Below are positions 5,507-43,899 of a stretch of 64,000 nucleotides of DNA, piece after piece. The notes beneath the pieces are model-generated. The model made no database searches. It saw only the letters and a list, made by a program, of their open reading frames with translations, and was not told where the DNA came from. The number at the start of each line of letters is the position of its first letter. Position 1 is the stretch's first letter. Both the position numbers and the translations under genes were made by a program. The stretch covers positions 3,439 through 67,438 of the forward strand of contig CAVDWX010000092.1 of the NCBI GenBank assembly GCA_963612735.1, written 5' to 3'. Source of the stretch: Gemmiger formicilis (GTDB taxonomy: Bacteria > Bacillota_I > Bacilli_A > RFN20 > CAG-826).

Positions 5507-6166
5507 CTAATTTTTTTCATCTAAATAAATGTAACGATGTCCGTGGAATTTGTAGCCACGTCGTATCGCTCTGGAAATGTGAGTAGAAGGAGCATGATAT
5601 TGATCTGCAACACTTTTTACTGATGGGTAAATACGAATAATATCTCCAGTTTCGGATACTTCAGCTACTTGTCTATATTTTTTATTAAGAGGAACAGCAA
5701 TTTTTTCTTCTTTATTGAAACTCCAGAAAAACCCTCCTGTTTGACTAAAAATTCCTTTGCAAGTTTTTAAAATATTTTGATGTAAACAACCTGTTACACG
5801 TTCAGCTTCATTAGCGCTAACAAACTCATTAATGAAATTGCCTTGTAAATCGTATTGATAAACAGGTGTCTCTAAAAAATTTCCGCAGTCTCCTCCTTTA
5901 GTGCTATTATAACCATTGGTATAAGAATCATAATATTGAATGTAATAAATTTCTTTTTCATTTAATTTATCTTGAGGAATATTTTCTTCTATAGGTTCTA
6001 TTGAAAACTTGTCTATTCCATATGCACGCATTGCTCGATACAAATGAACATCTGAAAATTTACTATAACAACAATGCTGATCTCATCTTCTTTTTAATCG
6101 TTGAATGGTTTGCCCTATATACACTTTATCATTTACAGTGTTGGTAATTTTATAAATCATTCCCAT
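5507..6166 (-). CDS. free-standing GIY-YIG homing endonuclease
   Basis: N-terminus MGMIYKITNTVNDKVYIGQTIQRLKRRWDQHCC has W encoded by TGA in the conserved RW-x-x-H position. It overlaps the end of the permease gene by 17 nt. Confidence 0.75.
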
Positions 6167-8625: not shown

Positions 8626-9042
8626 TTATGATAATTGCTCCTCAATTTTTAATTTTGTATCATTCATTTTTGCGACACCTGTTAAATTATCAGCCCGAGT
8701 AATTGTTACAGAGTCATCTTTAAAGATAGGTTGTGTAATACTTGGTTGATATATAGCTGGTTTGCTGGTGCCACCTATACCACTAGCCCAATTATCATTG
8801 ATAGTAATAGTATTGGCACGTCAAGTTTCTATAAATTTATTGCATTTTAACTGTATTTTAAAATTTTCTAAATCAGATAAGGTTGTTTCTTTCTCGTTCA
8901 TATCTTTGATAAAGGCTTGAAATTTTGATTGATATTTACATACTTCATAATGTACGCATAATGTACATTTTACTGGTTCAATAATAGCCGATAATTGTTG
9001 AACATCGCTATTGTTGTTGTTATTATTTTTCTTCGTTGCCAT
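8626..9042 (-). CDS. hypothetical protein (TGA read-through)
   Basis: ORF 8821..9042 continues through TGA to the TAA at 8626. Confidence 0.4.
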
Positions 9043-10209: not shown

Positions 10210-12333
10210 TTAAAATTTTGGTTTATATCTTACTAAACGCATATTTAGACTGTCAATATCGAAAATAGTCCTGCTGTATGTAAAAACTCATAATGAGTTA
10301 TCAAAAGTTTTTGATAGTGGTATTCAACTGATAGGATTTGAAAATCCGCTATATTCTGCAATTACTACATCTTTTTGGTCATCATAATCGTCTGGTATAT
10401 CGAACTTAAAGATACATTCGGTAAGTTGATCTCCTTCTTTTTTTTCAATTCTGTCTGTTGTTCATATGTCAATATCTCAATCTTTTTGAAAATTTTTACA
10501 TATAACAGGTTTTAAATATTGTTGATCTGATTCATATTCAAGATTATGTAAGGCCGCATAAAAGAAATTCTGTGAAACATAGGATCATAGACCTATGAAA
10601 GTCTGTCCTTTTTTTTGAAAAAGAGCATTATATGGTTCTCCACCTGAAGAAACATTTGTTTCCATTTGTCCTAAATTTTCATTTCATTTAAACTTACCTG
10701 TTTGGAGTGAATCATAGGTTCAATAATTGCCTACAAAATCATTAATTGTAAAACTCTGTTTCAAACCTTTATTTAAGGTTTGCATTAGTGGACAATAATA
10801 AGGAAAGTAACCAGGTTTTAAAGGACGAATACCTGAATAAAATTTTAAATATGATTGGTATCAACCTTTGTTAGCAGGCAATCATGCATAAGCAAAGCAA
10901 TAGCTCTCTCCGTTTTTACGATATTCATCAGAATTAATATCATCTACTTGTGGTTCAAAATCTTTTTCTTGAATTTGAGTTATTTTAATAATCGGTTCTT
11001 TGACAATCGTACAAAGTAAAGTGAATTTTAAAGAATCAGTACCGTTAGATGGATTTAAAGCACCATTGCCCACTACTACATATTTTGGTGTTGGCTCTTG
11101 AGTATTTTTGTATGTAGCATAACATTTATTATCAAAATTAATAGTTAAGATACGACTTTGAGATTCTAAAATTAGTTTTGATAATAAATAGTCTCGAAGA
11201 CTTTCTTCGCCTTGTATAATATGTTGATTAAGGTTATCTCGACCATGAATAAAATTTTCAAAATTTTCTCTTGGAGAGAGTAATAAAAACTTTCAATTTA
11301 CATCACTAAAGTCTAGTTGAACTTCTAATTTATCCTGAATACCTAAATAATGTCCAAGCTGAATTTGCATAGGAGTACTCCTTTCAGTTGAAATTGTTAC
11401 TCCTGCATTATTAGAAGCACTAAATTTACCTGAGGAATTGAAAGGATCAAATCCTCTAATACATTTTCACGTTCCCGGATCATGAGAACATAACAATAAA
11501 ACATCTTGTTCAACATTAAAATCACTAGAGGTCTGAAAAATATCGGTTGTATAAGAAAATTGATCAGTAGCTTTTAATTTTAACTTATCATCTTCAATAT
11601 TTGCAGTAAAACCTTTTCAATTATCTGCATTTGGGATATCAATAGCTATTCAAACTGGAGAACTTAAATGTCAATCAGTATAATAAAGATTTTGACCTTT
11701 TGAATCTTTATCTCGAATATCACTATAAGTATTTATTTTTTGATCTTCTTTTTCTGTTTTAGTCCAATTAATTAAATTAATTGCTTTTCCTCGTATTTGC
11801 ATAGTACCTCAATTTGATCGTTCGTACAAATTAGGATACAGAATATTAGGTATATTTGTATTTTTATGATATACAGTTCGATTAGCATCGGGAGTAACGT
11901 AATTTCTAGAATATGCATTTTGTAATAAGCTTCTATTCTGCCAACGATAAGTATCTAATCATAAAGTTTTGCTAGCAAATCCTACATCATCAAAGTAATA
12001 AGTGGTACGAATGCTTCCTGATGATGAACCAACAGGCTTTAAAATAAAAACACCATCTTCTTTATACACTATTTGAACAGAACTTCCATTGGCATTTTTA
12101 AATTTTAATAATTCACAAAAGGGATCTTTTGCAGTAATTTCTATTTGGCTTCCTTGACCACTTACAACTGTGATGCTGTTATTTTTTATATCGCTATTAT
12201 CAAAATATCCTTTAAATTCAACTTTTTGAAAAGAGAATGTTTTTTGAATTAAATCAGGCAATTCTTCTTTAGTTTTATTTTCAAACAAATTAGTTGTCTG
12301 TTGATTGTCATAATAAATATACTCATCAGCCAT
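10210..12333 (-). CDS. large hypothetical protein (about 707 aa, many TGA=Trp codons)
   Basis: Single continuous frame from MADEYIYYDNQ... to ...NMRLVRYKPKF when TGA is read through. No recognisable domain. Confidence 0.5.
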
Positions 12334-12345
12334 ATAACTTACCTC

Positions 12346-16061: not shown

Positions 16062-18845
16062 ATGATTACAATGATTAAGCAAACAAGCAATACTAAAAAG
16101 CTTTCCAATTTTCGTATTTCAACTTATGATGCGAAAATCACCACACCTGATAAAAAAACTGTAGAAATCATATATAATTCCTACGGTGTGCCAAATTTAT
16201 CTGCGGTTGACTTAGGTCTTTACGGAGACCGCAACGTTACGATATTAAAACTTAATTTCAAAGATTTATTATGGAATACGGCAGATGCAACAAATTATCA
16301 GATTAGTTTATTTGTGGATGGAAATAAAGTAGACACTTTTTTTGAAATGGATAATACATATCCTATCGTAACTTATCCTATTGATACAACTTCTCTGACT
16401 GTTGGAACTCATGAATTTGCAGTTTCAATTATGGAAAAGAGTAAAACGAGCGGTTCAAATATTGATATTAATCAAGAAGTATACTTATGCCGTTCTTTTA
16501 ATGGTACGGTTAATGCTAGTGATTTTTATGAAGCAGCCAATACTTTTGATTTTGTTGGCATTTCAAATAAAGGTTTACGTAGACATCAAATAGAAGTAAT
16601 GCTTGCAGATGATGGACAATTTGCATTAAAACAAGCAATAACAAGTGATGAGCAATTTAGCACTGATTTGGGTATGCAATATGACCGTTTTGTTAGTTAC
16701 ATCTGTTTTAATGAATCAAGTGATATCACTGGAAAGGTAACAAATTTAGATAAGTATATTGTTTTTCAAAATTTAGCTTTAAGCACCAATTACTATGTTA
16801 AACTTAATACAACTAGCGGCCATCAACATGAAACAGAAGATACTTTAACAGCATGAGTACCCGCAGAAGTTACGGAAGTTGCCGGAGCTTGAACTATTTA
16901 TTTTGTAGGAGTAAATGAAGACGAGTCAATTAGATTTGTAAGCCGCAGCATCTCATTAACAGTGTTGCCAACAACAATTCCATATGCCGAAGTAAATCCA
17001 GAGCGCGGCATCAATATTCCTGTTACGTTTGAATTATCGTTTTATTACGTATCAACTTCAACAAAAGTCGTCGAAGCTTGTGCCATTTTAAAAGATGAGT
17101 CTTTAAGCGCACTAGCAGAGATTACTAACACAGAGAAAGAAGTTTACTTACGACAAGGTGAAACATATATTCTTGAATTATATCCAGAAGGTGAATGAAG
17201 CTATCAAGGAGGTAAAGTAATCCGAGAATCTAGAATTATTTATACTGTGCCTAAAGACGCAACTGCAGATACTTTTACTGGAACATATGAAATAACCGCT
17301 GAACCACCAATTCAAGAACTAATGATTACACCTACTGAAGAAGACCAAGTTTTTAACAAAGAAGGAATTGATGGTTATAAACCAGTAAATGTTTCAGCAA
17401 TTCAAACAGAAACTCCAAGTGTTGATTTATCTCTTGCAAGTGGAAATCAAACAGTGAATGCTACTAGTGGAAAATATATAAAATCTCTTACTATTAACAA
17501 ACCTAGTACTTTAATTGCAGCAAATATTAAGAAAAGCGTGGTTATTGCAGGAATAACGGGTACTTATGAGTTTAAAACACAAAATAAAACTTTTACACCA
17601 ACTCAAACAGGAGGTTCAGTCAGTGCTGATAGTGGTTATGACGGTTTAGGTGTAGTCGCTGTTAACCCCGTACCACTTAGTAATAAAACAGATGTTTCTT
17701 TAAACTTCTATAATCAAAGTGCTGGAACAATTGCAGATAGTCAAAATATCTATTCTGACGCAAATAAATTCATGACTTGGGCAAGTGTTATTCGTCCTGA
17801 AACTTTGATTGCTGAAAATATTAAAAAAGATATTATAATAGCAGGAATTACAGGAACATTAGTAGGAGAAGATTTACCAGTTTATACAGGATTATTAAGA
17901 TTTAGTACAGCACCTACAATTAGTTTAAGTGGATCAACATTAAGTTGGGAAGCGATAGAGGGAGCAACAAGCTATGATATTTACAAAGACAATGCTCTAT
18001 TAAGCAATGTAACTACAACAAGTGTAGATTTAAGTACGCTAATTACAACAGCTGGCACTTATGCAATTACAGTTAAAGCCAAAGCAAGTAACTATGCTGA
18101 TAGTGAAGCAAGTAATAGTGTTAACTATGTGGTTCCATCAGCGTATAACGTAGTATTACCAAAAGCATATACCAATACTAATGTTTATTGTGCCTATTCA
18201 ATAGATGATGGTGTAACTTGGGTTGAAATGAAAACTGCTACTACAATACAAACTACACAAATTAAATTTAAAAATGTAGGGAACTCGAGCTATCACTATT
18301 CTTTATATTCAACATTGTTAGGAATGACATTATATTATGGCAAAACTTCTCAAAATTACATATTAACTCAAGATATTACAGATATTCAAGTTGATTACTA
18401 CGTTACTTGTTTAACAGGAGATACTCTAATTACAATGGCAGATAATTCACAAAAACAAATTAAAAACGTACAAATTGGCGATTGTGTACTTTCTTTAAAT
18501 GAAAACGGGGAAAAGGTAAGTAGTAAAGTTTATTATTCTGATGCAAATGAATATAAGACAGCATCTTATTATGACTTATTTATATTCTCTGATGGTACGG
18601 AAATCAAAGTAGTTAGAAGGCATAGATTTTATAACAATAGAACGCAAAGTTTTATTCACTTAGATGAATTTGAAGTTGGCGATAAAACTTATAAAGAAGA
18701 TGGAACTTGGGTTGCACTAATAGATAAAAAATACAAAGCAGAAGCAGGAGTTATTCGACATTTTACTATCTTCTGTGAACATAATACATACTTTGCAAAT
18801 GGTTTACTTGCAGGCAATAAATATAGTGATAAATTAATTTTATAA
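16062..18845 (+). CDS. tail fibre-like protein (about 927 aa) with C-terminal intein/Hint module
   Basis: Four ORF pieces share one frame across TGAs. Residues about 785-910, CLTGDTLITMADN...IFCEHN, form a mini-intein-like Hint module ending HN followed by T. Confidence 0.6.
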
Positions 18846-19735: not shown

Positions 19736-19738
19736 TTT

Positions 19739-20944
19739 ATGAGTATTACATCTGTTTATAAATACACGAACGATAGTTGAGTAAAACTAAAAGCCTTTCA
19801 AGCAACTAGTGATGGAAATTGAAATCAAGTTAGTTCTACTACTACTCCTATAACTAGTACCGTTGATGCCTTTTTAGTAGATAGCGCTACAAATTATGCC
19901 TACTTTACCACTATGCTTGGAGGCGGCAATGGCACTTATACTGCAACCACAACTCTTGGTTCCGTAAGCATTGAAGGCAATGTCTTAGAATTATATGTTT
20001 ACTCTGCCGGAAGTGGTACTTGTACAATTACTTCAGGTGAAGCAACATTAGAAATTCCAATATATGTCGGATATATTGAATGCTTAGTAAAAGATACTCT
20101 AATTACTATGTGAGATCGCACGCAAAAGCCAATTCAAGATATTCGAAATGGCGATTATGTGCTTTCATTAAATGAAAAAGGTGAGGAAGTACCTGGATAC
20201 GTCTATTACGCAGATGGCGATCAATGCAAGACAGGTCAACATTATGACCAATTTACCTTCTCGGATGGCACTGTTGTGAAAGTTGTTCATCGTCATAGGT
20301 TTTACAACAATTTTGATAGAACATTTACTCATCTGGATAATTTTTATATCGGAGATAAATGTTATAAACAAGACGGGACTTGGGTTACTTTGGTAGGAAA
20401 AATTGATCGTGCCGAAGAAGGTATTATTCCTCATTATACAATTTTCTGTAATAATAATACATATTTTGCTAATGGGCTACTTTGCGGTAATCGTTTTAGT
20501 AAAAAGGTAAAATTGATTGATCCAACCATTCCGGCTGAACCTACTTATAGTTGACAACCAGTGGCACGAAAATTTCCAGATGACTTTAAAGTATCAAAAA
20601 TTTGAGTAGACAGTAAAGATAAAGATATTTATATTGAAAAGAACGGTCAAGCGATTAATTATATTCAAACTGACAACAATGAAGCCAAAATGTTTTTATA
20701 TCAATATAATGGTGAAAAAGATTATCATAATATTACTTTAGAAGAATTAGATACAAACGCTGAATTGGTATTAGAAATTACTGAATATGACACGCAATAT
20801 GATATAACCAATTTAATTTATAATTATATTTTATATTATGAATACAAAATAGACCGCATTTCTCCAATAGCAACAATAAGTATTGAGAATGCGGGGGGGG
20901 TGTCAACATTGAGATGAGGAGGCAGCAGTCCTTTAGGAAAATAA
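19739..20944 (+). CDS. tail fibre-like protein with internal intein/Hint module (about 401 aa)
   Basis: Single frame through TGAs. Hint module CLVKDTLITMWDRTQ...IFCNNN, then conserved TYFANGLLCGNRFSKK (paralogous to the C-terminus of 16062..18845), then a further 120-aa C-terminal region. Confidence 0.55.
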
Positions 20945-23007: not shown

Positions 23008-23034
23008 AGAGGCCATTAAGGTCTCTTTTAATTT
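23008..23034 (+). terminator. rho-independent terminator
   Basis: agaggccattaaggtctc hairpin followed by TTTTAATTT, directly after the last plus-strand fibre-block gene. Confidence 0.6.
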
Positions 23035-23127
23035 GGCAGGGGATCCAGGAGTCGAACCCGGTTCGGAGGTTTGGACGCTCCTACGATGATTTTGAAGATC
23101 ACTGGCCAGAACCGTTAGCCCAATCCC
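23034..23127 (-). tRNA. tRNA with anticodon UCA (reads UGA) and long variable arm
   Basis: Minus strand GGGGATTGG-GCTA-ACGGTTC-TGGC-CA-GTGAT-CTTCAAA-ATCAT-[GTAGGAGCGTCCAAACCTCCGAA]-CCGGG-TTCGACT-CCTGG-ATCCCT-G-CCA. The T-loop is TTCGACT, the discriminator is G, CCA is encoded, the anticodon loop is 7 nt with U33 and A37, and the variable arm is about 23 nt. Confidence 0.6.
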
Positions 23128-23162
23128 CTGTAAGGGATGAGTACCTATCGTCGCAAATTAGT

Positions 23163-31612: not shown

Positions 31613-32218
31613 TTAAATTTTTGAAGTCAATTTACTTTGTTTTTTACGAGATTTTGCCTTCTCGATAGCTTCACGATGAATGTTTCTTGTATTTTTTAAT
31701 AAACCCGATTTAACTATATGACTTAAACAAATAGGAGTTAAATCAAGATGCTCCGCACAACAATTGATATGCAATCCGTCATCGTAACCAAAACAAGAGT
31801 GGTCATGGCCATGAATGTTTACTGCATAAGGAAAATCGATTGGTTCATGACTTAAGATTAATCTTTCAGCAATTATTACTGGACCAGCATAAACTTCATC
31901 AAATACGTTGGCATAGTATGAAGCACCTTGGTCATGATTACCTAAGATAAGAATCTTTTTCTTTGCCTTTAATTTTTTAACATATTCAATATTACCAACA
32001 TCACCTAAAATGACTAAAGTATCATTTTTGCCGCAAGTCTTATTAATACGCATTATTTGCAAAGCATCAAACTCCTCTAAGGTATTAGTATATTGTTTAA
32101 CCATACTTTTTCTAAGCAACCAATTTTCTTTATCGTCGAAATGTGGGTCGCTGTAAAACCATACATTACCAGATGCCGAAAACCAGTGTTTAAAAGCGGG
32201 ATATAATTCATATGCCAC
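31613..32218 (-). CDS. calcineurin-like metallophosphoesterase
   Basis: GDVGN...GNHD...GHDH metallophosphatase motifs. Confidence 0.65.
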   Translation of the reverse strand: MAYELYPAFKHWFSASGNVWFYSDPHFDDKENWLLRKSMVKQYTNTLEEFDALQIMRINKTCGKNDTLVILGDVGNIEYVKKLKAKKKILILGNHDQGASYYANVFDEVYAGPVIIAERLILSHEPIDFPYAVNIHGHDHSCFGYDDGLHINCCAEHLDLTPICLSHIVKSGLLKNTRNIHREAIEKAKSRKKQSKLTSKI

Positions 32219-32334: not shown

Positions 32335-33255
32335 CTAACTCTCCATATTTAAATAGTTAATTGCTTTACGGGCAGCAATGGCTCCATCCGCGCAAGCGGT
32401 AATAACTTGTTTTATCGGCTTATCAAGGCAATCGCCAGCTCCAAATAAGCCCATTTCTTCCGCCCCGCTATGTTTAATTTGGTCAATAGTAAAAGGAACA
32501 CTGTCGGGCAATATTTTTATCGGCACCTTATTAATTTTTTGTCCAATGGCAACGAAGATACTGTTAACCACCAAACTATCATTAATTTTTACTGCATCTG
32601 CATTTTTCATTTCTTCAACTTGGTTGACAGTAAAATTTGGTATCCAGATGCAACGAGGATTATTAAGCAATTTATCTATAACGATTTGTTCGCCGTAAAA
32701 TTTATCTCCTTTAGTAAGTAAGTAGATATTGCCTTCCTTATTAAGGTTTAATAACTCAGTTGCATAAGCTAAAGCACTATTGCCATCTCCCACAACTGCA
32801 ATGGCAGGGTCAGATGCATGTAAAGCACCATCACAAGAAGTACAATAAGAAACAAAACCTTTTTCCGTTAATTGGTACTCATTAGGTAAATCTAAATGTA
32901 CTGGATCGGCACCGGTTGCAATGATAATTACATCAAATAAGTTGTTCTCTACTTCTTCTACCATCTGCAATTGCCAACATTTTCTGTTGGTATTAAATTT
33001 TATATTTAATACGGTATCAAAAGTTAAATTAAGTTCACCTTGTTCTTCAATTTGGTCTATAATGCTCCAACAGTAATCTAAACCAGAAATTGACTTGACA
33101 CCTGGGATATTTTCAATTAAAGGCGCACGACTAGCTTGACCGCCTACGGCATCTTTTTCAATGAGGGTCGTTTTATACCCTGCACGTGTTAAAAATAAAG
33201 CCGCCGTTAAACCTGCAGGTCCGGCTCCAATAATTGCTATTCGTTTATTATTCAT
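32335..33255 (-). CDS. trxB: thioredoxin reductase-like FAD/NAD(P) oxidoreductase
   Basis: N-terminal IAIIGAGPAGLTAA FAD fold, redox-active CTSCDGA (CxxC of TrxB), C-terminal GAGD. Confidence 0.7.
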   Translation of the reverse strand: MNNKRIAIIGAGPAGLTAALFLTRAGYKTTLIEKDAVGGQASRAPLIENIPGVKSISGLDYCWSIIDQIEEQGELNLTFDTVLNIKFNTNRKCWQLQMVEEVENNLFDVIIIATGADPVHLDLPNEYQLTEKGFVSYCTSCDGALHASDPAIAVVGDGNSALAYATELLNLNKEGNIYLLTKGDKFYGEQIVIDKLLNNPRCIWIPNFTVNQVEEMKNADAVKINDSLVVNSIFVAIGQKINKVPIKILPDSVPFTIDQIKHSGAEEMGLFGAGDCLDKPIKQVITACADGAIAARKAINYLNMES

Positions 33256-33278
33256 AAAATTATCTCCTTACTATAATT

Positions 33279-33353
33279 GTGGCACGGGTTAAAAGACTTG
33301 GACTCTTACTGGCGGTTTTGGAGGCCGACGTGCTACCATTACACTAAACCCGC
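33279..33353 (-). tRNA. degenerate tRNA-like element with anticodon-loop CCA (tRNA-Trp-like)
   Basis: Minus strand GCGGGTT-TA-GTGT-AATGGTA-GCAC-G-TCGGC-CTCCAAA-ACCGC-CAGT-AAGAG-TCCAAGT-CTTTT-AACCCGT-G-CCA. Acceptor has 7 bp with G1-U72, G73 and CCA. Anticodon stem is weak and the T-loop is atypical (TCCAAGT). Confidence 0.4.
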
Positions 33354-33356
33354 ATA

Positions 33357-33466
33357 TGGGGAGATATACCGGATTTGAACCGATGCCGAAAGAGCCACAA
33401 TCTTTTGTGCTGCCCCGGCTCCCGCAGCTTGGAAGGCTGCCATACAAAGCTGTTATACGAATACCC
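33357..33466 (-). ncRNA. tRNA-like structured RNA (T-arm GGTTCAAATCC, ends CCCA); candidate Y-RNA-like or pseudo-tRNA
   Basis: Minus strand ...GGCATCGGTTCAAATCCGGTATATCTCCCCA sits 3 nt upstream of the previous element. The 5' GGGGTAT can pair with 3' ATATCTC, enclosing about 110 nt, too long for a canonical tRNA. It lies in the GC-rich leader between the promoter at 33518..33545 and trxB. Confidence 0.3.
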
Positions 33467-33517
33467 CATTGGGTAACCCAAAGCATTTAAACTTTGAACT
33501 ACCTATACGATTAATAT

Positions 33518-33545
33518 ATTATATTCAATTTTCTCGTTTTGTCAA
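33518..33545 (-). promoter_or_regulatory. sigma70 promoter (TTGACA-16-TATAAT)
   Basis: cttgacaaaacgagaaaattgaatataatat on the minus strand. Confidence 0.6.
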
Positions 33546-33555
33546 GAAAACTTTT

Positions 33556-34026
33556 CTAATCTTCTATATCACTGCCATCAGGTGCAAAACACTCAATACC
33601 GGCATAAATGCAATCTTTATTTTCATAATCGATATCTAAAAGGAAGTTATAAAATCGTATCGCTCCTCGGTATTCATCAAGGTCGTCATTAACTATTCTT
33701 AAATCATGGTTTAAATCTGCTAAAATTTCAAGTTTATCTTGTAGAGAATTATTTGTATTATAGACATCTTCTTTTTGTTGTTGGACTGCACGCATATCTT
33801 CTATACAACTATCGACTTTATCGTTTAACCAAGTTTTGATTAAACTAATAGTATCTTTAGATATTGGTTTTGCTACACGATAATCTTCCTCTTTGTATAC
33901 AAAATGCGCAATATGATTACCAATCATTGCACTAAAGCTATCTCGAATATAACCACCATATGAAAATAGCGGTGTATATGTATTTGTTTTTTTATTTTTA
34001 AGATAAAAGCTTACATATTCACTCAT
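33556..34026 (-). CDS. hypothetical protein (156 aa)
   Basis: Intact ORF. Confidence 0.4.
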   Translation of the reverse strand: MSEYVSFYLKNKKTNTYTPLFSYGGYIRDSFSAMIGNHIAHFVYKEEDYRVAKPISKDTISLIKTWLNDKVDSCIEDMRAVQQQKEDVYNTNNSLQDKLEILADLNHDLRIVNDDLDEYRGAIRFYNFLLDIDYENKDCIYAGIECFAPDGSDIED

Positions 34027-34113
34027 AATAATTTTTCCTTTCTTTAAATTTATTTTATGATTACCTAGTTTCTATCAAAAATGATTTGCTTATGTGTAGG
34101 CTGTCTTAAATTT

Positions 34114-35655
34114 TTAATTTAATCTAATACTGGTGTATCTAGGCTTATTTAATACCTCAACCATATAATCATATGGTGTATGAACTTTACCTTGAAGTAA
34201 ATCGGCGAATACAGTTGAGGCTTTACCGCATACCATTTGAACGTAAGGCATACTTGCAATTGTATGGAAGGTGTCTTGTCTTGCATCTACATTCCAAAAT
34301 ACAATATTTGGCAATTGATAGCCCATTACTTCAAATTTATTTCTCATCATATTATAGAATGTATCGAACGTACCGTTATAGTCGGTAGTTTCATCGAATT
34401 CCATATCTGTGATAAGGATTAAATTTTTTGGCATCTCTTCTTGAGATAGATGATTTGTTACAGCAGTTTGTAAGATTAAATCGAACACTGCTTCCATATT
34501 TGTATTGGCAACTTTGCATGGAATAACATTTAACTTTTCAGCTAAACTTGCATTTTCCGGCAAAGTAACCCATTTAGCTTCGCGGCTAAAAACCATCATT
34601 TTATTATGATATGCTCCTGTGTTTCTCTCAGCAAAGTAAACTGCTAAGCTTAAAGCTACATTTAATGGTTGGGTTTCCATAGAACCAGATGTATCGGCAA
34701 CAACAATTGTATTGCTATTTGCATTTTGTGGAATGTAGTTATTTAAACTTTTCCACATAGCTTCTACTTCAGGTATCGGTTGTAATTGATGGTTATACCA
34801 TGCATACCAATTTTTCATGTACTTTTGCACTATTTTATAAGGGAATAAGTGTCCAACATTCATTTTTGCTGCTACTTCTTTCCCATTAACAGTAATAGTT
34901 TTACCTTCTTGTACAGCTTCGACATACTCTTGGAAACGAGCCTTATCGTGACGATTGAACGCCTTAATATATTTAGCCATTGCATTGCCCGGAACCTCAT
35001 TATAATTCACATCAGACCATCTGTTGTCTGAAATGATAGGTTCTAATACCTTACCATATTTTCGTAAAGTACTAAGCATTTTACGATATGCAGGCACTGT
35101 TAAGCCGAATGCTTTTGCAGTTTTTAAGCCTAATCGTCTAGATTCATCAGATGATGTATTTGTAGATTTTAACCATTTAGCTAATATACTAATTGGTTGA
35201 TGATTTCTAAAATTTTGACAATCGTGTCGAAAAATAAATTTAAGATAGTCAAACATTTCTTCTTCACAAGGAGTGCCTTCTAAAGCGTAATAATCGTCAG
35301 CACGACCAAAAAAGCCAATATTATCAAAATTCTTAATTAATATTTCTGGATGGCACGATGCTAACCAACGAAGACAAGTGCGGAAAGTTTGTCTTTCTCC
35401 TAAGCCTTCTTTAATATCTCGTGCATAAAAAATTGTCTTTAGAGTTAACTCAGGGTTTTCATCCCAAGCCATTGTAAGATGTTTATAAATGTCTGTATCG
35501 TCACGGTCACGAATTGACCCTATAATAGCGAACAAATCTAAACATTTAGACATTGTAGTGTTTAAAGCAGGTTGACCATTTTCGGTTACCTTTTGTGCAG
35601 ACATATTGTCCATTGCATTAACAAAATTGATACTCATAAATTTTTTCCTTTCCAA
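34114..35655 (-). CDS. Ro60/Rsr-like protein: TROVE-related DUF2828 N-domain + C-terminal von Willebrand A domain
   Basis: N-terminal TENGQPALNTTMSKCLDLFAIIGSIR...ENPELTLKTIFYARDIKEGLGERQTFR matches the DUF2828/TROVE-like pattern (TENGA..TTGS.LLD.F...R....DP.L...LFY.RD.R.G.GER..FR). C-terminal IVVADTSGSM is a MIDAS motif of a vWA domain. Confidence 0.6.
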   Translation of the reverse strand: MERKKFMSINFVNAMDNMSAQKVTENGQPALNTTMSKCLDLFAIIGSIRDRDDTDIYKHLTMAWDENPELTLKTIFYARDIKEGLGERQTFRTCLRWLASCHPEILIKNFDNIGFFGRADDYYALEGTPCEEEMFDYLKFIFRHDCQNFRNHQPISILAKWLKSTNTSSDESRRLGLKTAKAFGLTVPAYRKMLSTLRKYGKVLEPIISDNRWSDVNYNEVPGNAMAKYIKAFNRHDKARFQEYVEAVQEGKTITVNGKEVAAKMNVGHLFPYKIVQKYMKNWYAWYNHQLQPIPEVEAMWKSLNNYIPQNANSNTIVVADTSGSMETQPLNVALSLAVYFAERNTGAYHNKMMVFSREAKWVTLPENASLAEKLNVIPCKVANTNMEAVFDLILQTAVTNHLSQEEMPKNLILITDMEFDETTDYNGTFDTFYNMMRNKFEVMGYQLPNIVFWNVDARQDTFHTIASMPYVQMVCGKASTVFADLLQGKVHTPYDYMVEVLNKPRYTSIRLN

Positions 35656-35837
35656 GACGCTAAAAGATTTATTTGATAGAATAAGTAACTAATTGTAATT
35701 CTTTTTATATTGCTGAAAGCGTCTTTATACTAGACCCGTTGACAATCGGTTTAAATGACGATAATATTGTGAAAATATGTTGTTTTACGAATTAGCTGTT
35801 AGGGTCTATTTTCTTTCTTTCTTATCTTTACATAAAT

Positions 35838-35866
35838 ATTATACTAAAAATTTTTTGATTTGTCAA
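35838..35866 (-). promoter_or_regulatory. sigma70 consensus promoter overlapping the 3' end of the upstream gene
   Basis: cttgacaaatcaaaaaatttttagtataatat on the minus strand. The TTGACA lies in the last codons of 35844..36479. Confidence 0.65.
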
Positions 35867-36479
35867 GAGAATTTTTTAACATTTCGTCTAAAATTTCCGC
35901 AGTTCTATAATGAGTAGATAAAGCGTTGAAATTCTCCCAAAAACCTTCACAATCAACAATAATTTGTTCAATACTAACTACTTGATTATGATGACAATCA
36001 AGTCCAACGTTATACATCCACGGCACATATTTAATAGCATCATAATAAAATGGACAAAGACTTTGATGAGTATGCCCATACAAATTAATAAGACACTTAT
36101 GTAAACTTGCTTTATCATCTGATGTAATAGTTGGATAATGACTAAGCCAAAAATGATATTTACCATATTTAAGCGGTTTTGCGTATGTAACTTCTACTAC
36201 ATTTGGAAAAGTGCGGTATAATTCAATGCGGCGCTCCGTGTCGTGATTACCGCAAATGATATGTAATCGACCTTTTAAACTTTTAATTTGATTATGAACG
36301 GCAGGAGAATCCGTAAGCATTAAATCTCCCAAAATATAAACATCGTCTTCATCTTTGACAGTAGTGTTCCATTTGAAGATAACATCTTTAGTCATCTCAT
36401 CAAGGCTATTATAGCCTCGTGGTTTATATAGAAACTCTTTATTATGTCCAAAATGTAAATCAGATGTAAAATATATCAT
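35844..36479 (-). CDS. calcineurin-like metallophosphoesterase
   Basis: DLHFGH...GDL...GNHD...GHTH motifs. Confidence 0.65.
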   Translation of the reverse strand: MIYFTSDLHFGHNKEFLYKPRGYNSLDEMTKDVIFKWNTTVKDEDDVYILGDLMLTDSPAVHNQIKSLKGRLHIICGNHDTERRIELYRTFPNVVEVTYAKPLKYGKYHFWLSHYPTITSDDKASLHKCLINLYGHTHQSLCPFYYDAIKYVPWMYNVGLDCHHNQVVSIEQIIVDCEGFWENFNALSTHYRTAEILDEMLKNSLDKSKNF

Positions 36480-36493
36480 AATCTTCTCCTTTC

Positions 36494-36589
36494 GTTTAAA
36501 GGAATATACTAATTCGGAGTCTTTATTTGCCTATACGACAGAATTAGTATATTCCTTTAAACGGCGAGTTTTCATTAGAGACTCGCCGG
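36494..36589 (-). promoter_or_regulatory. two large hairpins immediately upstream of the phosphoesterase RBS
   Basis: 18-bp perfect inverted repeat aaaggaatatactaattc/gaattagtatattccttt and hairpin cggcgagt...actcgccg, sitting between the tRNA-Ala-like element and the RBS aaaggagaag. Confidence 0.4.
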
Positions 36590-36608
36590 CTCCCCGTTAA
36601 TCAAATAT

Positions 36609-36690
36609 GGTGGATTTTATGGGATTTGAACCCATCTGAAAATTTCCTGCTTGCAAGGCAAGCGACCACCCCTAGCAGTCCCAAAACCCA
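36609..36690 (-). tRNA. tRNA-Ala(UGC)-like with 10-nt variable loop
   Basis: Minus strand GGGTTTT-GG-GACT-GCTAGGGGT-GGTC-G-CTTGC-CTTGCAA-GCAGG-AAATTTTCAG-ATGGG-TTCAAAT-CCCAT-AAAATCC-A-CCA. Has G3-U70 and A73 (Ala identity elements) and anticodon UGC. The anticodon arm is nearly identical to E. coli tRNA-Ala. Confidence 0.5.
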
Positions 36691-36699
36691 TTTCTAGGA

Positions 36700-37660
36700 T
36701 GATTTAGGCTCATCACTCCCACACCGATTTATTTTTAAGAGTAAAATAGTGTGCTTATTTTGTCTCTCTAAACGGGCGTCCCCGGTCTTGCCGGCCCCAG
36801 CCCCAACCATAATACGGAAGAGTTCGCGATGGGTCGTCGCGCTCTTGCTTCGGGTGTTCGTTATGGACAGGTGGTAATCATTCGGATTCATATTTGATTA
36901 CTCTCATTCTGCGTCCACCTTGTATCGTCCGCCAACGTATTACTGTAATGCAACTTATTGAGATATCTTTCGATTAGGTAGTTGCTAAACCTACCAACTA
37001 ATGTATGGGCACAGCCAGTTGTTTTTTATACGAGTTTCTAGGTGAGGCGTACCATTCTACTGTCTCTCGGGCTATTTTGGTTTAACTTTGATAGATACCA
37101 ACCTACCAATGGGTCTTGCAGTTATCGAGCGTCAGTCCCAACTGGACACGGCGCACTTAGTTAATGATGAGACCCCTGTCTCATTGTTATCATTAACAAA
37201 TGCAGCAATCAATTATAAGCCTATAATGTTCTGTAGTTTAAATATCATTGCGATAAGGCACTACATAGCCCCCAACTTGTAATTTTTACGTGTTTGAGGT
37301 ATTGGATACCCTACTGACTTCACGGTGATTATCGGCACCACAAGCGCTTTTTCGCATTACAACTTTTTTCGACTTCGACGGGAAAATAAGTAACGATACA
37401 AGTCTATCCGTATAAGCCACGGAGGCTATATTTGCACAAAACCTTCAATTATTTAAAGTCGTTTTATGTCCAAGACCGAAGTTGTGCGCTGGCGTTTCGA
37501 CTTTTATGCAGAGTTCCGTTTTGACGGACTTTCTTGTTCCTTAGCATTAGAACGGAGACCACGATTAGAATTGCACTAATCACTATCCATTAGGGCGGCC
37601 ATCGGTAGGCGGGATGATGAACATCCCTTTAAAGGTTTTTTATTTTTCTTTTCTTATCAA
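36700..37660 (-). ncRNA. roughly 1-kb GC-elevated structured noncoding RNA upstream of, and co-transcribed with, the tRNA-Ala-like element
   Basis: No ORF longer than 65 codons on either strand. GC content far above the flanks. Many long-range complementary segments. Transcribed from the promoter at 37671..37699. Confidence 0.45.
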
Positions 37661-37670
37661 TTACATAAAT

Positions 37671-37699
37671 ATTATACTAAATTTTTTACTACTTGTCAA
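37671..37699 (-). promoter_or_regulatory. sigma70 consensus promoter
   Basis: cttgacaagtagtaaaaaatttagtataatat on the minus strand. Confidence 0.65.
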
Positions 37700-37732
37700 G
37701 AAATTTATTCAACTTTTTGAAAAATTTTATTG

Positions 37733-38095
37733 CTAAGGAAGTGGAACCCAATGGCTAGTATCATTATTCCAATATAAGTCCACACCGGTTACATCGTAAG
37801 GATTACCCCAACAATCATAAATTAACCCTTGTTTAATTTGACAAAGCATTCCTAGTCGTTCAGATGAACGCTTTACAGAAAGTAAATCTGTATCAAGAGA
37901 ACGAGCTAGTTGAACTATTTTTTGATACACACCGATACCTTTTGCACGATAAAGATGCGGAGAAACGGCACGATTAACTTCAACTAAACTACGACGTTCC
38001 ATCGCATTGAGTGTTGCCGCCGATAAATTTAGTACCTTAGCAGTATACCAACCATCAGATGGAAAATTTGATAACTCATTAACATAATCTGCCAT
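37733..38095 (-). CDS. hypothetical protein (120 aa)
   Basis: Intact ORF downstream of the promoter at 38148..38176. Confidence 0.45.
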   Translation of the reverse strand: MADYVNELSNFPSDGWYTAKVLNLSAATLNAMERRSLVEVNRAVSPHLYRAKGIGVYQKIVQLARSLDTDLLSVKRSSERLGMLCQIKQGLIYDCWGNPYDVTGVDLYWNNDTSHWVPLP

Positions 38096-38694: not shown

Positions 38695-39098
38695 TCTAGT
38701 ACTTCGCCATCTATTTCTTCCCTAAAAGCACACCAAACATCTTCTTCTAAAAAATCACGAATTGCAGGGATTAAGTTAAAAGTAGGTCTTGTCGCTGTAA
38801 AGCGAATATCTTCTACTTGTACATCTACTAATGGTGCTATACCTCGATTTACTCTGATTTCATTAATATCATTAAGACGACCATTATTTTCCCAAATATT
38901 TACTAAATCTTCTTCAGTAAAGAAAGGAATCGATGCACCTTCTTCTACTGGGCGAAAAGTTTTTTGTAAAAATTCATTAAATTTTTCAATATACTCAGCA
39001 TTAAGCTCCATAACATTAATATACTCTACACGTTCAACAGAACGAATTACTAATTGTCTACTCACAATTAATTTCCTCCTTATTTCTTCCAAGGCCAT
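38652..39098 (-). CDS. hypothetical acidic protein immediately downstream of the sigma factor gene
   Basis: 148-aa ORF ending EEEEEPWQ. Its start overlaps the sigma gene stop. Confidence 0.45.
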   Translation of the reverse strand: MALEEIRRKLIVSRQLVIRSVERVEYINVMELNAEYIEKFNEFLQKTFRPVEEGASIPFFTEEDLVNIWENNGRLNDINEIRVNRGIAPLVDVQVEDIRFTATRPTFNLIPAIRDFLEEDVWCAFREEIDGEVLDWEFGMEEEEEPWQ

Positions 39099-39919
39099 GC
39101 TGCCTTTAATTTTTGTAAACTTGCTTTTTCGATTTGTCTAACTCTTTCACGAGTTAAGTTTAATTCAGCTCCAACTTCATCTAAAGTATGAGTTTTTGTC
39201 CAATTAATTGGGTCACCATTTTCAACCTTACCTAAACCCATACGCATTTTAATTACTATTTGTTCACGTGGTTTTAAAACGGTCTTAATTAAATCTTGAA
39301 TTACTTCTTCTTTTTCCTTACGAACTGCAAAATGTTCAGGTGTTTCGCTTCTTGTGTCTGCTTGTAAGTCACTTAAAGTGTCACCATCATCTCCTAATGG
39401 TGTTTCAAGACTTACAGTGTCATAGCGCCAACCTTCCAAGTCAGCAACCTTTTCTACATCGATGCCCATAACTTCTGCGATACGAGCAGGTGTGGCTTTT
39501 CCACCCTTACTTTCTAATTCAGCAATAGTTGCTCTATACTTGTTCAACATTTGATAAATATGAGCGGGAATACGGATAGTTTTTCCGCAATCAGTGATTG
39601 CTTTAGTAATGGCTTGACGAATCCAAGGAGTCGCACAAGTTGAGAAACGATAACCTAAGTCTGGATTGTATTTTTCAACCGCAGTGATTAAACCTAAATT
39701 TCCTTCAGCGATTAAGTCTAACTTTTCCATATGACTGTTTTGATAATTATTTGCAATTGATACAACCAATCTTAAGTTACTATTGATTAATTGTTCTTTC
39801 GCAGCGTGAGCAACTTCAGGGTCTTCGCTTCTCATTTTGTATGCTAATTCTCTTTCTTCATCTGCACTTAATAATTGATATTCACCAATTTCTTTCATAT
39901 ATTTATTTAATGCTGTCAT
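39080..39919 (-). CDS. phage-encoded sigma-70 family RNA polymerase sigma factor
   Basis: Region 2 (LRLVVSIANNYQN...DLIAEGNLGLITAVEKY), region 3 and region 4 (TLDEVGAELNLTRERVRQIEKASLQKLK). Confidence 0.8.
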   Translation of the reverse strand: MTALNKYMKEIGEYQLLSADEERELAYKMRSEDPEVAHAAKEQLINSNLRLVVSIANNYQNSHMEKLDLIAEGNLGLITAVEKYNPDLGYRFSTCATPWIRQAITKAITDCGKTIRIPAHIYQMLNKYRATIAELESKGGKATPARIAEVMGIDVEKVADLEGWRYDTVSLETPLGDDGDTLSDLQADTRSETPEHFAVRKEKEEVIQDLIKTVLKPREQIVIKMRMGLGKVENGDPINWTKTHTLDEVGAELNLTRERVRQIEKASLQKLKAAWPWKK

Positions 39920-41645: not shown

Positions 41646-42264
41646 GTAAATTGTTCACTTTTTCCGGCATCAAGTACTGCGGAGAAATTTTCCATTGGTA
41701 GCAAAATGCATCTGCGCCGGCTGTGAAGTGATACTTGCCATTGCGGGCTAAAAGCCCGTGTTCAAGCATCCAATTACTCATTCGGCTTACATCGCCTTGT
41801 TCACTACCAATAATAGTATGTAGACGTTCAATTCCACCTGCCCATCCGCTATTAAAAATAGTGTCATAGTAAAAGTAGGCGGCAAAAAGTTTAAAATATG
41901 AACCAGCCGTTTGTCTATTGAAGTGAGTTAGCAATAAATCCACCACGCGGTCAAAAGTTTCCATCGGCATTAGAACGATTGATGTATCCACTTGCCAAAT
42001 TATCGGCTCTTTTAAACGTGCGCGCCAACGGCTTAATGATGAGTTAGTTAATTGCATATTAGCGTAACACAGTCTCTTACTGTCGGGCACTATGCGGAAA
42101 CGGCAATCCTTCGGTGCGAAACTACTTTCATATTCAATTGCGGATGCTCGCAAGGCCATCATAAATGTTAAATAATCACGTTTGTATAAAGTCCAGTCGG
42201 TGTCTACGATAGGAAGGTATGGAAGATTGGTTTTGTATTTATAAAAAGTGTTATTAGTGTTCAT
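41632..42264 (-). CDS. hypothetical protein (210 aa)
   Basis: Intact ORF with no strong own promoter. Likely co-transcribed with the upstream structured RNA. Confidence 0.4.
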   Translation of the reverse strand: MNTNNTFYKYKTNLPYLPIVDTDWTLYKRDYLTFMMALRASAIEYESSFAPKDCRFRIVPDSKRLCYANMQLTNSSLSRWRARLKEPIIWQVDTSIVLMPMETFDRVVDLLLTHFNRQTAGSYFKLFAAYFYYDTIFNSGWAGGIERLHTIIGSEQGDVSRMSNWMLEHGLLARNGKYHFTAGADAFCYQWKISPQYLMPEKVNNLLDKE

Positions 42265-42469
42265 AGAAAATCTCCTGTGTTATATTATGTAAACCACAAA
42301 TTGTATTATATAAGATAACAAGGTCATGGACTGCTAGACACATTTTGAAGTTTATTTAATTGTGTTTTCGTGTTATCTTATCTTATTCTTAGTGATATAC
42401 ATTTTCATTTTAATCCGTTTTTGATAAAAAGTCCATTTTGAGTTAAGTAGTTGTTCTGCGTAGCGCGGA

Positions 42470-42720
42470 ACCCCTAGGTGGAGCGCGAGCTACGCATGTA
42501 AGTGATGTTAGCACGGTGCGAGCGCAGCTCAGCAACGACCGCAACGCGGGCGTAGTTCCTTCCTGCGGAGCAAGGAAGGTCGGATGGATACGAAGAGTGC
42601 GGCGGCAGGCGCACTCGTAGTAAAGTGAAGCGAGCCAAGTGTATCGTTCTAATCGTTCGCTCCAATGCTTAGAAGAACGTCAAGGAAGGAAAGACCATAA
42701 ATGGCCTTCCCCCTTAACTA
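42470..42720 (-). ncRNA. GC-rich structured noncoding RNA candidate with two upstream 16-bp direct repeats
   Basis: Multiple strong hairpins: gcgtagc...gctacgc, ccttcctgcggagcaaggaagg, gagtgcggcggcaggcgcactc, ggaaggaaagaccataaatggccttcc. Upstream on the minus strand: tagaatttcacagcgc x2 and a TTGACA -35-like element. The only ORF, 42474..42665, is an artefact. Confidence 0.4.
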
Positions 42721-42785
42721 TCTAAGCAATTCTATCATGTCAAGCGCTGTGAAATTCTAACCATCACATCGGGCGCTGTGAAATT

Positions 42786-43235
42786 CTAGCCATTGGCGCC
42801 GCTGGCTTCCTTCGTCTTCAAACGGCTTATCACCTTTGCGCGCTTTTCTGCCATCAATGCGGCCTTAGCAGCCGCCTCAGCCTCACGAGCCTTTGCCTTT
42901 GCAGCCTTACTTGCTACTTCATCATCGTAAGCATTTGCCGCCTCAAATGGGTCGTAATCAAGTGCCTTGATAGTATTTTTTAGTTCTCAGCTAATTGTAT
43001 AACCGGTAGCTTCATTTTCAATAACGAAAACAATACCTTCCTTCGTCACTAAAATATCTACTTCATCACCATACATCTGCTTGAGGTCATCTACCAAGGC
43101 AGCGACTCCTTCGGCGCGTCATTGATTACGGGCTGTTTGTTGAATGGTTTCGGTGCCATTAGCAGTGATATTGGTTGGTAGGGCACCTAACGAAGCTATT
43201 TGGCGGCAAAAAGACGTAAACTTTAATTCATTCAT
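42786..43235 (-). CDS. hypothetical protein (149 aa, Ala/Lys-rich C-terminus)
   Basis: Hand-translated single frame MNELKFTSFCRQIASLGALPTNITANGTETIQQTARNQWRAEGVAALVDDLKQMYGDEVDILVTKEGIVFVIENEATGYTISWELKNTIKALDYDPFEAANAYDDEVASKAAKAKAREAEAAAKAALMAEKRAKVISRLKTKEASGANG with two TGA=Trp codons. RBS aggagaa. Confidence 0.5.
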
Positions 43236-43315
43236 TAACTTGGTTCTCCTTTCTTATCTTAAAAAAGGAAGGCAGGAATTAAATCCTCCTCCCAATTAGT
43301 GTTTTAGGTTCAATT

Positions 43316-43585
43316 CTATAGATAAAATTTCTTACCGCTATGTTTAGCTCCGCAAGTAGGACAAACATCTTCGTATTCCTCAACATTTACGTTAATTACT
43401 TCGATGTCACCTGCTTCAAGAATACCATCTGCTACCTTTTTAGCTTTAGTACGGATGCTAGTCATTGTACCAGCTGCGATACCAAGTTCCTTTAAAGTTA
43501 AATGTTCTCCTCTGTTAGCTTTTAAAGCTTCGATTGCTGCAAGTTCTTTTTCAGTGTAACTTAAAACTGTTTGTTTGTTTGCCAT
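43316..43585 (-). CDS. small winged-helix-like DNA-binding protein with C-terminal zinc ribbon (paralog family member)
   Basis: LTLKELGIAAGTMTSIRTKAKKVADGILEAGDI resembles the recognition region of the other three paralogs. Ends CPTCGAKHSGK. Confidence 0.45.
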   Translation of the reverse strand: MANKQTVLSYTEKELAAIEALKANRGEHLTLKELGIAAGTMTSIRTKAKKVADGILEAGDIEVINVNVEEYEDVCPTCGAKHSGKKFYL

Positions 43586-43587
43586 AG

Positions 43588-43899
43588 TTATTTGTCTTCC
43601 TTTCTATTAATCATTTGATAATCCGTATTTGGCGTCACGGATGGGCTTATCTGAATTAGCCATTCCCCTGACTCATTCAAACTCGCTGTTATAGAAGGAG
43701 CAGTAAGGCCATCAGGAGAAACCACCACTACGGATGCCGATGGTTTGAATCGTTTAAGAATTTGAATAAGTTGTTTGTTTGTCATAGTACTAACTAACAT
43801 ACTATCATATTGTCTCCCTCCTATAACGTTTTGAGGATATTTAGTTCGCTCCTCATAGCTAAGTCGAGGATAAGGTAGGGACCTCGGCTTACTTATCAA
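43588..43899 (-). CDS. hypothetical protein (start ambiguous; the shorter form MLVSTMTNK from about 43800 has RBS GGAGGGAG)
   Basis: ORF in GC-rich leader context. Confidence 0.35.
   Translation of the reverse strand: MISKPRSLPYPRLSYEERTKYPQNVIGGRQYDSMLVSTMTNKQLIQILKRFKPSASVVVVSPDGLTAPSITASLNESGEWLIQISPSVTPNTDYQMINRKEDK

Follow-up and report, generated by a model that had tools for sequence, protein, structure and literature searches.

Which RNAs would a Ro60-like protein encoded in a phage genome work with? This question is raised by a stretch of 64,000 nucleotides (the window; positions 3,439 to 67,438 of the forward strand of contig CAVDWX010000092.1, Gemmiger formicilis assembly GCA_963612735.1), in which a minus-strand gene at 34114..35637 encodes a protein of the DUF2828/PHROG 850 family. 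A preliminary description had cast two tRNA-like elements about 0.7 kb downstream of this gene as its Y-RNA-like partners or decoys. Ro60-like proteins are common in phages and one homologue has an anti-defence phenotype, while to our knowledge RNA partners and a mechanism are known only for a few TROVE/YrlA cases. Precedents are the phage Ro60 of Thermus phage phiLo (PMC12135203) and the TROVE proteins found with YrlA in mycobacteriophages (PMC4201824). Here we show that a short RNA unit, consisting of a covarying 7-10 bp stem followed by a near-invariant ACAGC(A/U)A, recurs beside DUF2828 genes in many phage lineages, and we present this unit, together with tRNA-like genes that carry it, as candidate partners of the Ro-like protein.

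Results

The window encodes a divergent Ro60 homologue

All genes around the DUF2828 locus lie on the minus strand, and the gene and its promoter are as follows.

34114..35637, minus strand: gene of the Ro60-like protein (DUF2828 helical domain followed by a DUF7788/vWA domain with a complete MIDAS), within the mechanical open reading frame (ORF) 34114-35655
35838..35866, minus strand: sigma-70-type promoter TTGACA-17-TATAAT (12/12 consensus matches), driving the DUF2828 leader and gene

A Pfam scan of the ORF 34114-35655(-) identified DUF2828 (PF11443, E 1e-41) and DUF7788 (PF25043, E 2.4e-33) in addition to a weak match to VWA_2, and the PHROG search assigned residues 10-508 of the protein to phrog_850, 'RNA-binding protein' (E 5e-112). 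The mechanical ORF starts with TTG at 35655, but ATG 35637 is probably the true start, yielding a protein of 507 aa, since the closest relatives (P0001 and P0002) are 507 aa long and the ribosome-binding site (RBS) AAAGGA is located ahead of this ATG. No in-frame TGA is present in the gene. Alignment of 42 homologues showed D321, S323, S325, T385 and D417 of the MIDAS to be invariant, and the same applies to N-terminal motifs including TEN and Y-R...GLGER, confirming the DUF2828 signature and the C-terminal vWA domain with MIDAS that had been read from the sequence before. Within 6 kb around the locus the minus strand carries five perfect TTGACA-N16/17-TATAAT promoters.

The fold was assessed by comparing an AlphaFold2 model of the window protein (mean pLDDT 90.9, pTM 0.90) with solved structures using Foldseek. 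Three matches were obtained at E <= 0.001, every one of them Ro60 and aligned over the full length, the best being 1yvr (E 1.5e-8, TM 0.58). Two independent structure comparisons concur in a helical-repeat ring followed by a vWA domain, and among homologues the Ro-like ring is conserved as a whole rather than the vWA domain alone. Judged from the predicted structure, the window protein is thereby shown to be a divergent phage homologue of Ro60 belonging to the DUF2828/PHROG 850 family. The TROVE/Ro60 architecture proposed in the preliminary description consequently stands at the level of fold, where the model leads to Ro60, and not at the level of sequence, where neither Pfam TROVE nor Ro60 is matched.

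The Ro60 resemblance of the DUF2828 family is already known, and the family is partly characterised rather than new here. Full-length homologues were found by tblastn in 710 cultured-phage records, annotated as 'Ro-like RNA binding protein' (in mycobacteriophages), 'RNA-binding protein', 'vWFA protein' or 'DUF2828', and with the Felixounavirus gene as query the homologue was present in all 251 records found. One member, gp130 of phage Bas63, has been reported in a preprint to have a Ro60-like structure, to be encoded directly upstream of tRNA genes and to counter the Ppl defence system (PMC11482910); the product of bas63_0130 is a homologue of the window protein (29% identity, E 7e-69) with both Pfam domains in common. 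DUF2828 is mentioned only incidentally in the searchable literature, and a blastn search of cultured-phage DNA gave no match to window positions 33000-37800.

A conserved hairpin unit marks the DUF2828 gene

The motif ACAGCAA was spotted as recurring in loci in which ARAGORN called no tRNA. The coding strand holds 572 copies and the opposite strand 103, compared to about 89 expected per strand, and copies are concentrated in the first kilobase upstream of the DUF2828 gene, at 3.28 per kb as opposed to 0.02-0.48 per kb elsewhere. The motif starts 0-2 nt past the 5' strand of a stem of 7-10 bp, with the pairing strand 40-60 nt downstream, and a closing stem of at least 7 bp was detected at 123 of 183 unique sites, whereas shuffling left 17 of 183. 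When 49 diverse units were aligned, double compensatory changes were seen at six of the seven stem pairs. These 49 units, with the window excluded, were used to build the covariance model R1.

When R1 was run over both strands of the 64-kb window with filters off, exactly two significant matches were obtained, both in the DUF2828 leader:

35729..35810, minus strand: leader unit 1, stem AGACCC/GGGUCU, then UA, ACAGCUA and an A/U-rich interior of ~55 nt (R1 28.2 bits, E 2.9e-4)
35652..35727, minus strand: leader unit 2, stem AGACGC(UU)/(UA)GCGUCU, then UCAGCAA (R1 38.4 bits, E 1e-6; also seen in the fold)

The two units stand in tandem between the promoter at 35866-35838 and the RBS, and the 3' strand of unit 2, the top R1 match of the window, stops one base ahead of the RBS. 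The stem of unit 1 appears in both the minimum free energy (MFE) and the centroid folds, and at the same position the relative L001 has the compensatory pair AGACAC/GUGUCU. Outside the leader, the next R1 match in the window has an E of 0.71. The preliminary description had overlooked this conserved repeat in the 5' leader (35652-35810), which no Rfam family matches at the unit positions and whose ACAGCAA motif we did not find described in the searchable literature.

Related loci are organised in a similar manner. R1 detects two to three units upstream of the gene and one to two directly downstream of it in the loci L001-L006, of which L003 (87% protein identity) and L001 (78%) are the close relatives compared below, and three units upstream of the homologue in Listeria phage LMSP-25. 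In 41 further loci R1 gave 101 matches at E < 1e-3, all on the gene strand and nearly all within ~700 nt upstream. In an alignment of 41 matches, mostly from outside the sources used to train R1, standard pairs occupy all cells of the stem, and double changes account for 66 of them, compared to 14.9 +/- 3.4 in shuffled controls (reached in 0/500), while slid controls collapse. Together with the counts given above, these data show that the unit recurs beside DUF2828 genes in many phage lineages. In locus L013, the region upstream of the DUF2828 gene has ACAGCAA units on either side of four tandem repeats of ~37 nt (aaagaggaaaccccttgcctttaaagtagggattgtt) at 1420-1580.

Anticodon-like loops and tRNA-like carriers

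Of 102 simple units, 28 contain an internal hairpin whose 7-nt loop resembles that of an anticodon arm, compared to 2 of 102 shuffled ones, and the loops include CUUUUAA (nine times), CUGUUAA (eight times) and CUGCUAA (four times). Moreover, ARAGORN run in intron mode revealed, in 55 loci, tRNA-like cloverleafs whose acceptor, D and T arms are intact and whose anticodon region holds a motif-bearing insertion of 24-57 nt. There are 44 unique carriers of this type, all co-oriented with the DUF2828 gene and 39 of them within 1.5 kb upstream of it; their 'anticodons' are heterogeneous and often implausible. The window contains no interrupted tRNA-like carrier and has the free-hairpin form only.

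DUF2828 genes are embedded in phage tRNA arrays

The association with tRNA genes was examined in 80 IMG/VR loci with homologues of 39-50% identity. A tRNA is present within +/-10 kb of the DUF2828 gene in 74 of the 80 loci and within 1.5 kb in 71, and all 495 tRNAs (495/495) are co-oriented with the gene. The density is 1.1-1.3 tRNAs per kb within 1 kb of the gene, falling to 0.28 per kb or less beyond 5 kb, and after de-replication the association is retained in 21 of 28 clusters at 90% identity and in 11 of 16 at 70%. Felixounavirus homologues likewise sit with tRNA arrays, and in L004-L006 (51% identical) a transfer-messenger RNA (tmRNA) and three tRNAs precede the gene. The DUF2828 family is thus shown to be genomically tied to tRNA-type RNAs.

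In Listeria phage LMSP-25 (L090) the homologue comes after a tRNA array that also holds ROOL and drum RNAs (3488-4039 and 1001-1099, respectively), the ROOL RNA scoring just under the gathering threshold (88.5 bits, E 1e-16). Past this homologue, the record annotates genes for a metal-dependent phosphohydrolase, a tRNA splicing ligase and an RNA ligase. In mycobacteriophage Halena, the positive control, a weak, sub-threshold YrlA match (39.8 bits, E 1.4e-5) was obtained 125 nt after the homologue. An RNA role is accordingly supported by the gene contexts of relatives and not by the ligase of the window itself.

The two flagged RNAs of the window

The RNAs that had been put forward as partners of the protein lie on its strand, and the promoter-driven leader claimed for them is indeed present, both elements following a perfect consensus promoter:

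33518..33545, minus strand: promoter TTGACA-16-TATAAT of the downstream small-RNA transcript
33357..33467, minus strand: 111-nt chimeric tRNA-like RNA (blastn and alignments to L001 and L003; folds; identical in L087)
33280..33353, minus strand: ordinary tRNA-Trp(CCA) (ARAGORN; Rfam tRNA 50.8 bits, threshold 29)
33407-33467, minus strand: partial copy of a non-canonical tRNA-Gly(UCC)-like gene, complete at 4086-4162 in L003 and at 4416-4491 in L001

The first element had been described as a degenerate tRNA-like RNA. The details given for it, G1-U72, G73 and an encoded CCA, are correct, but the covariance score and ARAGORN agree that 33280-33353 is an ordinary, bona fide tRNA-Trp of standard isotype. 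Its T-loop is slightly unusual (UCCAAGU instead of UUCGAAU), and L001 has the orthologue at 6531-6604.

For the second element, the T-arm and the CCCA end were rightly noted, whereas the YrlA-type shape ascribed to it was not upheld. Its 5' part (33467-33407) comprises an acceptor 5' strand, a D hairpin with a AACAGCUUU loop, a UCC anticodon arm and half a T stem, and derives from the non-canonical tRNA-Gly(UCC)-like cloverleaf; its 3' part (33406-33357) comprises the anticodon arm, T arm and acceptor 3' strand of a tRNA-His(GUG) and ends in CCCA. The two parts meet in a shared CAGCAC (33412-33407). Both L001 and L003 run collinear with the window up to ...GCCGGGGCAGCAC, after which the relatives continue GGGGCAU-UC-GUAU-AACAGCUUU-GUAU-G-GCAGC-CUUCCAA-GCUGC-GGGA-GCCGG-GGCAGCA-CCGGC-AUGCCUC-U-CCA. 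In its MFE fold this RNA forms a cloverleaf that has UCC in the anticodon loop and ends in U73 and CCA, and its D-loop AACAGCUU(U) and T-loop GGCAGCA are non-canonical. Neither ARAGORN nor Rfam calls it in the relatives; direct comparison of the L001 and L003 sequences reveals that substitutions within its acceptor, anticodon and T stems compensate one another. The AACAGC loop of this RNA is similar to the ACAGC(A/U)A motif of the units, and model R1 gives it no score.

Past CAGCAC, the window has the 3' 50 nt of tRNA-His(GUG), and the intact tRNA-His of L001 is found ~1.7 kb further on (6135-6209). Since this tRNA-His reads CAGCGC at the point that matches the junction, 33412-33407 looks like the product of a microhomology deletion. 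Relative to L001, the deletion of ~1.7 kb removed a non-coding RNA of ~0.9 kb, tRNA-Gly(GCC), a 163-aa ORF, tRNA-Leu(UAG) and the 5' half of tRNA-His. Through another deletion the window has also lost the tRNA cluster (Arg-Cys-Ser-Met-Met-Ser) that L003 carries immediately after its DUF2828 gene, as well as most of a hairpin unit downstream of that gene. Among the three contigs on record with the flanking genes, the 111-nt chimera is identical in L087 only, and the relatives with 78-87% identity do not have it as a unit, its halves being separate and individually conserved genes there; exact-pattern scans of IMG/VR found neither the junction nor the Gly-like element. The 111-nt element is therefore regarded as a lineage-specific deletion scar, as the sequence comparison suggests. 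A different reading of it as a tmRNA fragment, considered because a tmRNA precedes tRNA-Trp in L004, was rejected once the intact Gly-like cloverleaf and tRNA-His had been found in the relatives. The non-coding RNA of ~0.9 kb is conserved between the Gly(UCC)-like gene and tRNA-Gly(GCC) in the relatives (4491-5436 in L001, 4162-4928+ in L003); it has no Rfam match and, by nhmmer, no relationship to the ROOL RNA of the Listeria phage.

Searches for known Y RNAs gave the same picture. The Rfam YrlA and Y_RNA models found no match at E <= 10 in 33000-37800 and none at E <= 0.5 in the whole window, and the ROOL and GOLLD models matched nothing in the window at gathering or permissive thresholds. 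The YrlA motif GNCGAAN0-1G occurs twice on the strand in 4.6 kb compared to 1.3 expected, which is chance level, and neither copy is inside a flagged element. The 111-nt RNA can adopt a cloverleaf whose extra arm is long (MFE -37.9 kcal/mol, z -2.0) and whose acceptor-like stem has two G-U pairs and ends in CCA; the ends of the RNA lie in this stem, unlike those of YrlA, which form the Ro-binding stem. Both flagged RNAs are bystanders of this phage's decaying tRNA cluster and not Y RNAs, and the annotation of the window is corrected accordingly, one being an ordinary tRNA and the other a deletion scar.

Discussion

The preliminary description is partly supported by these results: it was right about the protein, its Ro60 analogy is backed by structure, and the RNA partners it proposed were wrong. 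Instead, the favoured reading, to which we give roughly even chances, is that the Ro-like protein recognises the leader units and that the resulting ribonucleoprotein (RNP) acts on tRNA-type RNAs, with the flagged RNAs as bystanders. The protein would then bind the ACAGCAA units in either or both of two settings. Acting in cis, the units would provide feedback control of the protein's own mRNA; acting in trans, processed units could serve as small RNAs in the role that Y RNAs have for Ro60. The RNP would in turn act on tRNA-type RNAs by quality control, by protection or by decoying against host RNA-targeting defences, and such a counter-defence role is consistent with the anti-Ppl phenotype reported for the homologue Bas63 gp130. 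A bolder version holds that the units and tRNA-like carriers form a new class of Y-RNA analogues, within a phage RNP that guards or mimics tRNAs and so blunts RNA-targeting or other defences of the host. Loops resembling the anticodon loops of Lys(UUU), Asn(GUU) or Ser(GCU) are seen in about a quarter of the units; we consider this version possible, though tentative and on the doubtful side.

Several observations weigh against the favoured reading. The link between protein and RNA is one of guilt by association. The window protein is not matched by TROVE (PF05731) in the Pfam scan at E <= 0.01, Ro60 is absent from its PDB sequence matches in phmmer and profile searches, which are at vWA level only, and its identity to solved Ro60 structures is 10-14%. 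Ppl, which Bas63 gp130 counters, is proposed to degrade DNA and not tRNA. The unit is not universal, as R1 is marginal (E 0.01-0.1) at the Felixounavirus and mycobacteriophage homologues of Bas63, warpig and Halena, whereas it is clear in the window. The covariation comes from sequences whose choice or alignment took the stem into account, and from alignments fitted to a model, despite the shuffled and slid controls. Furthermore, the whole window leader folds no better than its shuffles (z +0.52), only the two closing stems being stable, and in several lineages the 3' strand of the last unit abuts or includes the start codon, which would suit pure cis-regulation equally well.

Such a purely cis-acting function, in which the units are translational operators, attenuators, or stability or processing sites of transcripts from the tRNA-array region, read by host factors or another phage protein, is the alternative that we take most seriously, although we find it unlikely. 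It fits the position of the units in the 5' leader from promoter to RBS and the frequent placement of the last unit 0-35 nt from the start codon or overlapping it (e.g., ...GUCAUG), as well as the units found between tRNAs and right after the gene. On the other hand, arrays of three to eight units and units inside tRNA-like cloverleafs exceed what a single operator needs. The motif is also specific to the flanks of the DUF2828 gene, dropping from 3.28 per kb upstream to 0.12 per kb in the first downstream kilobase, which is just as dense in tRNAs, and this specificity for the gene, rather than for arrays generally, argues for a gene-specific link. It is improbable that the protein acts mainly through its vWA domain and MIDAS as a protein-binding anti-defence factor, its place in the array reflecting shared early expression. 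The fully conserved MIDAS, the proposal that the Ppl system countered by Bas63 gp130 degrades DNA (PMC11482910) and the toxicity to the host of the overexpressed homologue of mycobacteriophage LeBron would all be accommodated, but conservation extends over the whole Ro-like ring, a YrlA-like RNA and RNA ligase genes lie beside the mycobacteriophage and Listeria phage homologues, respectively, and a dedicated RNA motif flanks the DUF2828 gene.

The motif-bearing insertions in the anticodon region of 44 unique tRNA-like genes and the annotated tRNA splicing ligase gene near the LMSP-25 homologue could also be read to mean that the ACAGCAA segments are short intervening or selfish insertions in tRNA genes and intergenic array DNA, which the Ro-like protein and ligases help to remove or tolerate. 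We hold this to be very improbable: the insertion positions and the 'anticodons' (atg, tta, aaa) lack consistency and are in many cases implausible, we identified no partner endonuclease, covarying closing stems are a feature of the free units themselves, and the window has no interrupted tRNA. Least of all can be said for the tRNA-Trp-like and 111-nt elements (33280-33467) as Y-RNA-like or decoy partners, a reading largely refuted already and left with scarcely any probability. They are on the same strand, ~0.65-0.7 kb from the gene and under their own promoter, and the 111-nt RNA combines its cloverleaf and long extra arm with the AACAGC-containing hairpin of the Gly-like RNA. Nevertheless, tRNA-Trp scores as a normal tRNA, and the 111-nt RNA is a fusion over the ~1.7 kb deletion relative to L001 that recurs in identical copies only, with no YrlA or Y_RNA match, the GNCGAA motif at chance level and its ends in the acceptor stem, unlike YrlA.

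The favoured RNP of Ro-like protein and leader units resembles the Ro60/Rsr-Y RNA system in the helical-repeat ring with a C-terminal vWA/MIDAS domain, in the small structured RNAs that flank the DUF2828 gene on the same strand and in the tie to tRNA-like RNAs and, in some genomes, RNA ligases. It differs in the lack of a Pfam TROVE match to the window protein and of a YrlA or Y_RNA covariance-model match in the window. Like YrlA, the carriers combine a tRNA-like domain with a putative protein-binding module and are encoded beside a Ro-like gene on the same strand; however, the RNA associated with DUF2828 is a stem followed by ACAGCAA, which is a different motif, and the carriers have their ends in the acceptor stem and the extra module in the anticodon region, a reverse topology. 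Bas63 gp130 and the 'Ro-like RNA binding protein' of SEA-PHAGES annotations share DUF2828 and DUF7788 with the window protein over the full length at 29-31% identity. The gp130 gene is directly upstream of a tRNA array, and its Ro60-like structure has been noted before (PMC11482910), whereas the window protein comes from an uncultured low-GC phage whose tRNA cluster is largely deleted. The structured ROOL, GOLLD and drum RNAs are, like the ACAGCAA units, co-located and co-oriented with phage tRNA genes, and ROOL and drum share one array with the DUF2828 gene in LMSP-25. In contrast to them, the units are short (56-85 nt) and simple tandem hairpins without an Rfam match, placed specifically at the DUF2828 gene and not anywhere in the array. 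A conserved and easily recognised unit that marks the gene across lineages is a concrete candidate ligand for the Ro-like protein, and it links three poorly understood features of large phages, namely tRNA arrays, odd tRNA-like genes and Ro-like proteins.

Gene neighbourhood and other features of the window

The genes and RNAs around the locus are listed here.

31613-32218, minus strand: second metallophosphoesterase (PHROG 547)
32335-33255, minus strand: Pyr_redox_2 (thioredoxin-reductase-like) gene (Pfam/PHROG)
33556..34026, minus strand: 156-aa ORF between the Ro-like gene and the RNA cluster, conserved in L003, L087 and L001 (152 aa)
35844..36479, minus strand: metallophosphoesterase (Metallophos_2, PHROG 547; Pfam, PHROG), directly upstream of the DUF2828 gene
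36608..36689, minus strand: tRNA-Ala(UGC), 82 nt, G3-U70, A73 (ARAGORN; Rfam 36.1 bits)

The two metallophosphoesterases and the thioredoxin reductase that had been noted nearby were recovered, whereas the 'polynucleotide ligase' proved to be an ATP-dependent DNA ligase (9023-10126), 24 kb from the DUF2828 gene and beside gyrase B-like and UvrD-like genes. Neither this DNA ligase nor the thioredoxin-reductase-like gene lends much support to a role in RNA repair. The 156-aa ORF has no Pfam or PHROG match.

The tRNA-Ala(UGC) forms the 3' end of a promoter-driven non-coding stretch of ~970 nt (36690-37665(-), GC 0.42), which has a perfect consensus promoter at 37699-37671(-). None of the six frames of the stretch is open, and a gene with recoded stops was ruled out, as reading through TGA or TAG still leaves every frame closed. 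Rfam gave no match to the stretch, and nhmmer finds no kinship with the large RNA of L001 and L003 or with the Listeria ROOL. From its sequence features, 36690-37665 is a candidate large non-coding RNA. Window positions 42264-43588 (GC 0.42) behave like this stretch. Between tRNA-Ala and the metallophosphoesterase gene, a near-perfect hairpin of ~25 bp (36490-36566), which attracts spurious microRNA-family matches on both strands, may be a processing site or terminator.

Elsewhere in the window, TGA is apparently read as sense in some genes, namely 10213-12345(-), a 711-codon frame in which TAA and TAG are almost absent and TGA occurs 16 times in frame, and 19736-20941(+), a 402-codon frame with six in-frame TGA; the product of the 711-codon ORF has no PHROG match. 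A 96-nt tRNA with the anticodon UCA (23034-23129(-)), called 'SeC' by ARAGORN and scoring 43.8 bits with the Rfam tRNA-Sec model, below its 47-bit threshold, could be a TGA suppressor. Finally, a 532-aa ORF at 17247-18845(+) has a C-terminal Hint/pretoxin-HINT domain, and the phage encodes a complete sigma-70-family factor with regions 1.2, 2, 3 and 4 at 39080-39919(-).

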